The position numbers and the translations under genes are program-made. The notes beneath the pieces were generated by a model. It searched no databases, was not told the DNA's origin, and saw only the letters and a program-made list of their open reading frames with translations. From positions 1-30,443 of the forward strand of contig JAEUWB010000033.1 in the NCBI GenBank assembly GCA_016786595.1: a stretch of DNA of 30,443 nucleotides, written 5' to 3'. Of this stretch, positions 28,921 to 30,443 are shown piece by piece. Each line of letters starts with the position of its first letter. The stretch's first letter is position 1. The stretch is from a bacterium. Lineage in GTDB: Bacteria > Bdellovibrionota_C > UBA2361 > SZUA-149 > JAEUWB01.

Positions 28921-30443
28921 ATGTACTTGAGCGGATTTAAGATTGCAGTAATAAAAGTGAGTTTTGTTTCCGCAGTCTTTGCGTTTAGTCCTGTATTTTT
29001 TTCAAATAATTGTGAGGCTCAGAACAAAAGCCCCTCTGGTTTTTACTGCCGAGATTCTTCAGGAAATGCAATCAATTGCCGCGATCATAATAAAAATAAA
29101 AAGAAAAAGAAGAAAAAGAAAAAGCCAGGTAGCGGCAGCAGTAGCGGCTCAGGGGCCACTGGCGTAACAGGAGCAACAGGAGCAACTGGTGCAACCGGAG
29201 CAACCGGAGCAAATGGAGCAACAGGCGTAACGGGTGCAACAGGTGTAACGGGTGCAACAGGTGTAACGGGTGCAACAGGGGCCACTGGTGCGACAGGCAC
29301 AGCAGGAACAAACGGAGCAACAGGAGCCACCGGCGCAACTGGCACAGCAGGAACAAATGGAGCTACAGGTGCAACCGGAGCAACAGGTGCAACTGGAGCT
29401 ACCGGAGCAACCGGCGCTACCGGAGCAACAGGTGCGACTGGCACAGCAGGAACTAACGGAGCTACCGGTGCAACGGGCGCAACAGGGGCAACTGGCGCAA
29501 CTGGCACAGCAGGAACAAACGGCGCAACCGGAGCTACCGGTGCAACAGGTGCGACAGGCACAGCAGGAACTAACGGAGCTACTGGTGCAACTGGAGCTAC
29601 CGGCGCAACAGGAGCAACGGGTGCAACCGGAACGAATGGAACTAACGGAGCAACTGGAGCTACCGGTGCAACAGGTGCGACTGGCACAGCAGGAACTAAC
29701 GGAGCTACCGGTGCAACGGGCGCAACAGGGGCAACAGGCGCAACTGGCACAGCAGGAACAAACGGCGCAACCGGAGCTACCGGTGCAACAGGTGCAACGG
29801 GTGCGACAGGCACAGCAGGAACTAACGGAGCAACAGGTGCAACTGGAGCTACCGGAGCAACGGGTGCAACCGGAACGAATGGAACTACCGGAGCAACCGG
29901 CGCTACCGGAGCAACGGGCGCTACCGGTGCAACAGGTGCGACTGGCACAGCAGGAACTAACGGAGCTACCGGTGCAACGGGCGCAACAGGGGCAACTGGC
30001 GCGACTGGCACAGCAGGAACAAACGGCGCAACTGGAGCTACCGGTGCAACAGGAGCAACGGGTGCGACAGGCACAGCAGGAACTAACGGAGCTACAGGAG
30101 CAACTGGTGCAACCGGAGCAAATGGAGCAACGGGCGCAACAGGGGCAACAGGCGCAACTGGCACAGCAGGAACAAATGGAGCCACTGGCGCAACAGGAGC
30201 CACCGGCGCAACAGGCGTAACGGGTGCAACAGGGGCAACTGGTGCAACCGGAACGAATGGAACTAACGGAGCAACTGGAGCAACTGGAGCAACTGGAGCT
30301 ACCGGAGCAACAGGCGCAACTGGCACAGCAGGAACAAATGGAGCCACTGGCGCAACAGGAGCCACCGGCGCAACAGGCGTAACGGGTGCAACAGGGGCAA
30401 CTGGTGCAACCGGAACGAATGGAACTAACGGAGCAACTGGAGC
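28921..30443 (+). CDS. collagen-like triple-helix repeat protein (Gly-X-Thr repeats) with signal peptide, 3'-truncated by window edge
   Basis: The frame-1 ORF starts at ATG 28921 after an in-frame TGA at 28819-28821. The N-terminus is [28 protein letters not shown] (signal peptide), then a Cys-containing segment NNCEAQ...FYCRD...NCRDH, then K9, then [10 protein letters not shown]. An unbroken (G-A-T / G-V-T / G-T-A / G-T-N)n repeat then runs for over 425 residues to the window end with no frame break. It is absent from the ORF track because it has no stop. The opposite-strand PVAPVA ORF and the +3 Q-rich ORF are frame shadows of it. Confidence 0.8.

Follow-up and report, generated by a model that had tools for sequence, protein, structure and literature searches.

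A probable Sec-exported collagen-like protein of nearly pure Gly-Ala-Thr triplets encoded at a contig end of a Bdellovibrionota_C genome

The 3′ end of contig JAEUWB010000033.1 (GenBank assembly GCA_016786595.1), a sequence of 30,443 nucleotides from a bacterium placed by GTDB in the lineage Bdellovibrionota_C, UBA2361, SZUA-149, JAEUWB01, carries a previously unannotated gene whose product is made up very largely of Gly-Ala-Thr triplets and is unusual within its class for both purity and length. The window analyzed here, positions 1 to 30,443, is the entire contig of this metagenome-assembled genome (MAG) as held at NCBI, and the C-terminus of the protein lies beyond its end. Translation in the +1 frame from the ATG at 28921 to the last base at 30443 gives 507 codons free of stops; the frame has been open since 28822, and this ATG is the earliest start codon in it. 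We consider it likely that the contig end holds the 5′ part of a real chromosomal gene on the plus strand for a Sec-exported prokaryotic collagen-like protein (CLP). The gene is missing from the list of open reading frames (ORFs) only because no stop codon closes it within the source sequence and open-ended ORFs were dropped. A preliminary description of this DNA had proposed just such an overlooked plus-strand gene with a signal peptide, a proposal now borne out by the open frame, by the ATG followed by n-, h-, and c-regions, and by a strong match to the Pfam Collagen family.

The encoded polypeptide is organized as a succession of short modules preceding one very long one. The start codon and a predicted Sec signal peptide (residues 1–33; 28921–29019, plus strand) can be read directly from the sequence, with a Lys-bearing n-region, MYLSGFK(IAVIK), an h-region of 16 residues with a mean Kyte-Doolittle hydropathy of 1.85, and a c-region, NNCEA, that places small residues at −3 and −1. 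A lipoprotein reading was considered and rejected, as FSNNC is no canonical lipobox. There follow, on the same strand and by translation, a short mature head with two Cys residues (residues 34–57; 29020–29091), a polybasic tract that includes nine consecutive lysines (K9; residues 58–68; 29092–29124), and a Gly/Ser linker, PGSGSSSGS (residues 69–77; 29125–29151). Taken together, the mature head spans 44 residues and is basic, with a net charge of +11. The collagen-like domain occupies the remainder (29152–30443), with 143 complete Gly-X-Y triplets, the last of them ending at 30438, followed by a partial 144th, and is stopped by the contig end.

The two cysteines of the head, Cys43 and Cys53, lie nine residues apart in a polar setting and may either close a hairpin by disulfide formation or staple neighboring chains to each other; residues 42–52 form a weak β-hairpin in an AlphaFold2 (AF2) model, with a predicted local distance difference test score (pLDDT) of 61–68. 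In the collectins and C1q, a short Cys-containing N-terminal segment directly precedes the collagen stalk, and disulfides located there link the chains; the bacterial head differs in having no sequence relationship to these segments and in its Lys tract, which has no counterpart there, so that the likeness is one of analogy only. The codons of the Lys tract alternate between AAA and AAG and thus leave no A run longer than five, which makes slippage-based phase variation at this site unlikely, and the idea was set aside. Searches with the head returned no match in a database of 5.8 billion proteins, in the JGI metagenomes, or in IMG/VR, and by sequence comparison it is an orphan. The sole match of an exhaustive HMMER search was P0241 (E = 8e-10, summed over eight stretches), a 1,238-residue metagenomic surface-repeat protein in which the motif GFxCDDIDGNLxSC recurs about ten times. 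Head residues 39–53 (29035–29079) form a loop similar to this motif, the common pattern being GF-x-C-x-D-x-x-G-N-x-x-x-C. As the match is limited to a short, repeated two-Cys motif and involves no homologous domain, P0241 was rejected as a homologue of the head.

Translation and a regular-expression count agree on 143 consecutive Gly-X-Y triplets, or 429 residues (29152–30438), in keeping with the more than 425 uninterrupted residues, mostly GAT, GVT, GTA, and GTN, previously described downstream of the signal peptide, Cys-containing head, and K9 tract. The triplets are distributed as GAT (101), GTN (20), GTA (13), GVT (6), GAN (2), and GTT (1), and the entire run contains not a single proline, no Asp, Glu, Lys, or Arg, and no interruption. 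A super-period of about 18–21 residues had also been suggested for this region. The 21-residue figure survives as the commonest spacing of the GTAGTN element (5 of 12 intervals); the regularity does not, as successive spacings of 15, 33, 21, 18, 42, 21, 21, 45, 21, 21, 30, and 54 residues span a range of 15–54, and the autocorrelation peaks at 63, 243, and 261 nt rise no higher than 0.74, with the background at 0.69.

At the nucleotide level, the near-perfect periodicity attributed to this DNA was not found. Copies of the DNA shifted in register are only ~69–70% identical, owing to strong variation at the three wobble positions, and exact repeats of at least 50 nt are few (137, 77, 74, 68, and 50 nt). 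The recombinational length variation that the preliminary description expected to be frequent had been deduced from such periodicity, a premise that the sequence does not provide, and stands as a conjecture. When the 9-nt unit is considered position by position, both G's of the Gly codon are invariant in all 143 triplets (286 G's), entropies at the remaining first and second positions of the codons are 0.25–0.79 bits, and those at the three wobble positions rise to 1.35–1.89 bits. Invariant glycine positions combined with scrambled wobble positions mark a constrained coding sequence, with its Gly register under purifying selection, and not simply a young DNA repeat; a neutrally drifting satellite would give another pattern.

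The Pfam Collagen model (PF01391) matches the plus frame with 215.8 bits against a cut-off of 27.2 (E = 4.2e-65), and the overall layout is that of a prokaryotic CLP, with an N-terminal export signal and head followed by a collagen-like domain in a bacterial chromosomal context. Among 8,000 candidates scored, 4,176 proteins match the repeat at E ≤ 1e-10. The terminal modules of these relatives include CBM96, DUF7151, Mtd_N, Peptidase_S74, Lcl_C, and CBM_5_12, and are so varied that the missing C-terminus cannot be guessed from them. Composition was compared with the 120 best collagen-like hits, which have a mean Pro fraction of 0.10 and a mean GAT fraction of 0.25. Five of the 120 (P0010, P0026, P0044, P0060, and P0076) are essentially without Pro and charge, and none carries a tract of five or more lysines. 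Against this background, the present protein stands out both in GAT fraction (0.71 vs. a maximum of 0.53) and in the length of its uninterrupted run (at least 143 triplets vs. a maximum of 131).

Matches in the PDB comprise collagen chains, the repeat part of BclA (E = 1.8e-8), and an idealized repeat. The last of these, chain X of 8zxl and 9ius (“spindlefibril | axialfibril”), is a 780-residue idealized (GAPGAPGSQGAPGLQ)n chain that scores E = 6e-130, level with type I collagen; being idealized, and with a match that is compositional (Gly-Ala-X), it was rejected as a relative. Among bacterial collagens, the Y position is occupied predominantly by Thr (PMC8968730), and an anomalous excess of the Thr-Gly-Ala triplet has been reported for bacteria, archaea, and viruses (PMC11923368). 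By its sequence, the protein is an extreme example of an abundant, already described class that is very common in environmental bacteria.

The repeat is open in more than one frame, and the question of which strand is expressed deserves separate treatment. Two long ORFs had been listed in this region, a (Pro-Val-Ala)n frame with a poly-Phe tail on the minus strand (29085–30365) and a Gln/Glu-rich frame on the plus strand (+3; 29270–30220). Both had been interpreted as frame shadows, that is, as other open frames of the repeat, and we concur, as neither has a family match above cut-off. The minus-strand ORF merits the closer scrutiny, since one could suppose that the coding strand is in fact the minus strand and that it specifies a proline-rich (Pro-Val-Ala)n protein whose C-terminus is a hydrophobic poly-Phe tail, with the ORF ending at 29085. 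Its frame is open over the whole repeat, its codon usage (mean log2 relative synonymous codon usage of 0.146, compared with 0.102 for the plus frame and 0.07–0.14 for reference genes) is no worse than that of the plus frame, and a weak terminator-like hairpin (29034–29014, minus strand) lies about 50 nt 3′ of its stop. Yet openness and a good codon score come automatically to this frame, since both frames have their wobble positions at the same nucleotides; for the same reason, neither codon usage nor the entropy pattern can separate the strands.

What does distinguish them is the use of Asn codons. All 22 are AAY and none is AAR (naive P of 2e-6, or ~2e-4 when only the 14 distinct sequence contexts are counted), a restriction that is meaningful only in the plus frame and that favors it over (PVA)n; in the minus frame, the codons opposite mix Phe and Leu freely, and the restriction is left unexplained. 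In addition, the only Pfam match of the minus ORF, Amelogenin, scores 23.7 bits and falls below its cut-off of 27, and no frame other than the collagen-like one yields anything above family cut-offs. The poly-Phe tail is no more than the Lys tract read on the opposite strand. The start codon, the signal peptide, and the thousands of homologues all belong to the plus frame, and in full-length relatives the GAT-type frame runs on into globular domains at both ends. Minus-strand coding thus strikes us as highly improbable.

The abrupt end of the gene raises the further question of whether the repeat has been assembled faithfully. The final 137 nt of the contig (30307–30443, plus strand) are an exact copy of 30145–30281, a direct repeat with a lag of 162 nt, and its second copy ends where the contig ends. 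This pair is the sole non-unique stretch at k = 99–127 and becomes unique at k = 141. As the contig stops exactly where the 137-nt repeat stops, the end is probably a repeat-caused assembly break, an ending typical of a de Bruijn graph at an unresolved repeat, and the gene probably continues past it; the last 162-nt unit calls for caution. A more severe view would hold that the array is an assembly artefact or a pseudogene, collapsed, expanded, or chimeric in the contig, and that the real locus is broken or far shorter. Such a view could draw on the position of the break, on the fraction of non-unique k-mers in the repeat (20% of 55-mers and 10% of 77-mers), and on the same-strain assemblies, which are short, thinly covered where coverage is given (L081, 1.4×), and never reach the locus. 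Nonetheless, nothing but the terminal pair is non-unique at k = 127 and nothing at all at k = 141, the wobble diversity lets most of the array assemble uniquely, the unique head runs seamlessly into the repeat, and 1.3 kb pass with no frameshift. We accord an artefact or pseudogene scant probability and retain a genuine gene, interrupted by the contig end, as the preferred reading.

Attempts to recover the C-terminus from other public data gave no contig by exact look-up of either the 839-residue protein encoded next to the gene or DnaK. A look-up of the Band-7 protein encoded further upstream returned three assemblies that are 100% identical to the window, cover only 18738–25872, and therefore miss the locus. 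These three, L081 (ENA ERZ15185498), L082 (ENA ERZ28613422), and L083 (Logan SRR12425358), all stop within 7 nt of one another at 25865–25872, inside an ORF on the minus strand (25334–25891). The shared stopping point suggests either that assembly breaks here repeatedly or that the junction varies between strains.

Collagen-like shafts are also found in phage fibres, and the contig could conceivably end at the edge of an integrated element, the gene then being that of a phage or prophage tail fibre. The best matches in PHROG are indeed tail-fibre families (among them phrog_6320, E = 6e-89), domains characteristic of phage fibres (Peptidase_S74 or Mtd_N) occur in some relatives, and the DNA downstream of the contig end is not covered. 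On the other hand, the PHROG matches are all confined to the repeat, the protein starts with a Sec signal peptide, a feature absent from tail fibres, the upstream 28 kb are housekeeping chromosome with no phage gene, and the head has no match in IMG/VR. A phage origin is therefore very improbable, and the gene is best regarded as a chromosomal CLP gene.

Comparison with previously characterized systems places the protein among CLPs while separating it from each of the well-studied families. Its nearest counterparts are the environmental CLPs (P0117, P0010, P0060, P0076, and P0044; for the class, see PMC11923368 and PMC8968730), which have the same Ala at X and Thr at Y, low or absent Pro and charge, an N-terminal signal peptide, and a collagen shaft set between terminal domains; the present protein differs in its higher GAT fraction, longer run, and orphan K9 head. 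The closest analogue to have been tested is the extracellular (Gly-Ala-Ser)n domain of Burkholderia Bucl8, which likewise comes from a Gram-negative host, lacks Pro and charged residues, and pairs Ala at X with a hydroxyl-bearing residue at Y. Recombinant, unglycosylated (Gly-Ala-Ser)19 of Bucl8 gave a shallow triple-helix signal by circular dichroism (CD) at 25 °C that was lost at 50 °C; the peak was read as a helix/coil mixture, and a host–guest melting temperature of 33 °C was cited for the unit (PMC7682875). The number of triplets in Bucl8 differs between strains, from 6 to 38 (PMC7682875; PMC4565658). In Bucl8, however, Ser occupies Y and the triplets sit C-terminally on a trimeric outer-membrane efflux channel that supplies trimerization, whereas here there is no OEP hit and nothing but the signal peptide and the 44-residue head stands before the collagen-like domain.

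The comparison with Gly-X-Thr fibres drawn in the preliminary description is fair as an analogy and does not extend to membership in the BclA, Scl, or Lcl families. BclA of Bacillus forms a surface filament of Gly-X-Thr repeats, with an anchored N-terminus, a C-terminal globular tip, and O-glycosylated Thr (PMC8968730); the C-terminal domain of the family is C1q-like. Its repeats are rich in GPT, with Pro at X, as opposed to the complete lack of Pro here; its N-terminus is an exosporium-targeting motif where the present protein has a Sec signal peptide; its host is a spore-forming Firmicute, whereas the relatives of the neighboring gene here belong to Bdellovibrionota and Oligoflexia; and no BclA-type NCBIfam model was hit. 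Streptococcal Scl1 and Scl2 and Legionella Lcl are secreted, surface-exposed, homotrimeric collagen-like stalks, as the present protein would be if it trimerizes. The LPXTG anchor of Scl and the Lcl_C domain of Lcl would fall past the contig end. The helices of Scl need charged residues, which are absent here, as is the V domain, the head being only 44 residues long; all three NCBIfam models score far below their cut-offs (Scl2, NF038329, 167 vs. 325 bits; Scl1, NF038330, 145 vs. 400; Lcl, NF046116, 144.5 vs. 500).

On these grounds, a structural model for the protein can be put forward. The chain would be exported through Sec, with cleavage of the signal peptide near Ala33. Three chains would then associate, with nucleation most likely provided, as it is in the majority of bacterial collagens, by a globular domain in the missing C-terminal part, and zip into a Pro-free, uncharged (Gly-Ala-Thr)n triple-helical rod; at 0.286 nm per residue, a triple helix of 429 residues computes to at least 123 nm. 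Disulfides involving Cys43 and Cys53 could staple the N-terminal ends, and the three K9 tracts, bringing about 30 positive charges to each trimer, could hold this end of the rod on lipopolysaccharide or other polyanions of the cell envelope, so that the C-terminal domain would sit at the far tip. As the repeat offers neither Pro nor salt bridges, the stability of such a rod would have to come from Thr-mediated hydration, from its sheer length, and possibly from O-glycosylation of Thr.

The main rival to this model accepts the export of the Gly-X-Y region and dispenses with the triple helix, casting the repeat as a mucin-like spacer or entropic bristle, flexible and perhaps densely O-glycosylated. 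In its favor, the repeat lacks both Pro and charge pairs, and the residues that fill X and Y, Ala and Thr, are only moderately helix-prone; even Bucl8 (GAS)19 yields no more than the shallow CD peak of a helix/coil mixture. Against it, a disordered linker could do without a strict three-residue Gly register; in this gene, none of the 286 G's in the Gly codons has changed although the wobble positions approach saturation, and 429 residues run on with no interruption, as a packed assembly of the polyproline II (PPII) type would give. We regard the spacer as unlikely, if the foremost competitor, and triple-helix formation as the better account of what the sequence would encode. A β-solenoid or a PPII bundle was considered as well and set aside; neither finds support in the AF2 monomer, which contains no confident fold and is weak evidence either way.

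A number of considerations nonetheless weigh against the collagen reading, at the level of the gene as well as of the proposed rod. The ATG at 28921 is not preceded by a Shine-Dalgarno motif, although about half of the confident genes in the window likewise lack one; codon usage gives the plus frame no edge over the minus frame; and exact look-ups of the plus-strand partial protein and of the shadow ORFs all came back without a public protein record. The architecture is incomplete, as the C-terminus, together with any trimerization or anchoring domain, is absent from the contig. The AF2 monomer is uninformative on the fold, with an overall pLDDT of 36 and values of ~30 over the repeat, and yields no structure, as the spacer would predict. 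The spacer also finds an argument in (Gly-Pro-Thr)10, which needs galactosylation of its Thr residues to fold and is otherwise a random coil (PMC11923368). In this connection, a search for adjacent glycosyltransferases, suggested in the preliminary description, found none in the 28 kb upstream. The proposed mechanism contains no step for crossing an outer membrane, and the roles assigned to the K9 tract and to the Cys residues are purely conjectural.

A bolder version of the model would have a helix of more than 120 nm built from essentially one uncharged, Pro-free triplet, stabilized by Thr hydration or by a dedicated O-glycosylation system for Thr with its genes elsewhere, with a disulfide-stapled collar of some 30 lysines on the anionic envelope; in a Bdellovibrionota-like and possibly predatory host, it could serve as a long-reach fibre for contact with prey or surfaces. 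We offer this combination as a long shot. If true, it would mean a helix held by neither of the known bacterial strategies, namely, Pro at X and salt bridges between Lys and Asp or Glu.

The existence of the gene is biologically unsurprising, given that GAT/TGA-rich CLPs are already known to be abundant in bacteria. Beyond adding an unannotated gene to the MAG, it supplies a clean natural test sequence for how far the collagen triple helix holds without proline and charge pairs, a matter relevant both to the rules by which bacterial collagens fold and to how recombinant collagen materials are designed. The gene also illustrates how such genes get lost, as their repeats break short-read assemblies and ORF listers skip open-ended frames.

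The collagen-like gene is preceded by a 249-nt AT-rich intergenic region, within which a candidate promoter-like site on the plus strand (28789–28818) combines TTGACG and AACAAT across an 18-nt spacer; one match to the consensus was found, where 1.8 are expected by chance. The 28 kb further upstream have the character of a housekeeping chromosome, with tig, clpP, clpX, lon, ispH (LytB), a purL-like gene, dnaK, an NAD kinase gene, and recN, accompanied by tRNA-Val/Asp, tRNA-Arg, and tRNA-Ala genes and by genes for a DUF6502 protein, CarboxypepD_reg/DUF5666 proteins, a Ser/Thr kinase, an M23 peptidase, and the Band-7 protein. No secretion-system gene and no phage gene occurs in this interval.

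The immediate neighbor (26152–28671, plus strand) encodes a secreted protein of 839 residues with a Lys/Arg-rich C-terminal tail, whose sole Pfam match is to the “middle domain” of hydrazine synthase alpha (HZS_alpha) and which has no NCBIfam name; it is 100% identical to MBL7662122.1 (JNK13_05155). Its family counts 3,725 proteins at E ≤ 1e-50, from Bdellovibrionota, Gammaproteobacteria, Chloroflexota, Acidobacteriota, and others, and is often fused to FG-GAP, fn3, or FlgD-Ig domains. The nearest relatives, 50–61% identical, are found in MAGs of Bdellovibrionales, Bdellovibrionota, and Oligoflexia, and suggest that lineage as a plausible placement for the host. A collagen-like gene lies beside the homologue in none of 80 GTDB loci and in none of 3 loci from Bdellovibrionota or Oligoflexia; the adjacency is therefore not conserved.

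Two minor features of the upstream region may be recorded. The tRNA-Ala(GGC) gene (23788–23861) overlaps the start of a listed 150-residue ORF (23815–24267), which a gene caller reports as 147 residues on the identical contig L081. Just downstream of this tRNA gene, a 120-nt direct repeat (23890–24009 and 24103–24222; 96.7% identity, 213 nt spacing) could be either an internal repeat of the protein or a repeated element. Lastly, the DUF6502 gene adjoins the CarboxypepD_reg/DUF5666 genes at 9448–11910, and a similar DUF6502 pair is present in an Oligoflexia MAG (locus L087, 3620–5086), a few kb from an HZS_alpha homologue; the recurrence of the pairing hints at shared lineage or at a conserved small cluster.

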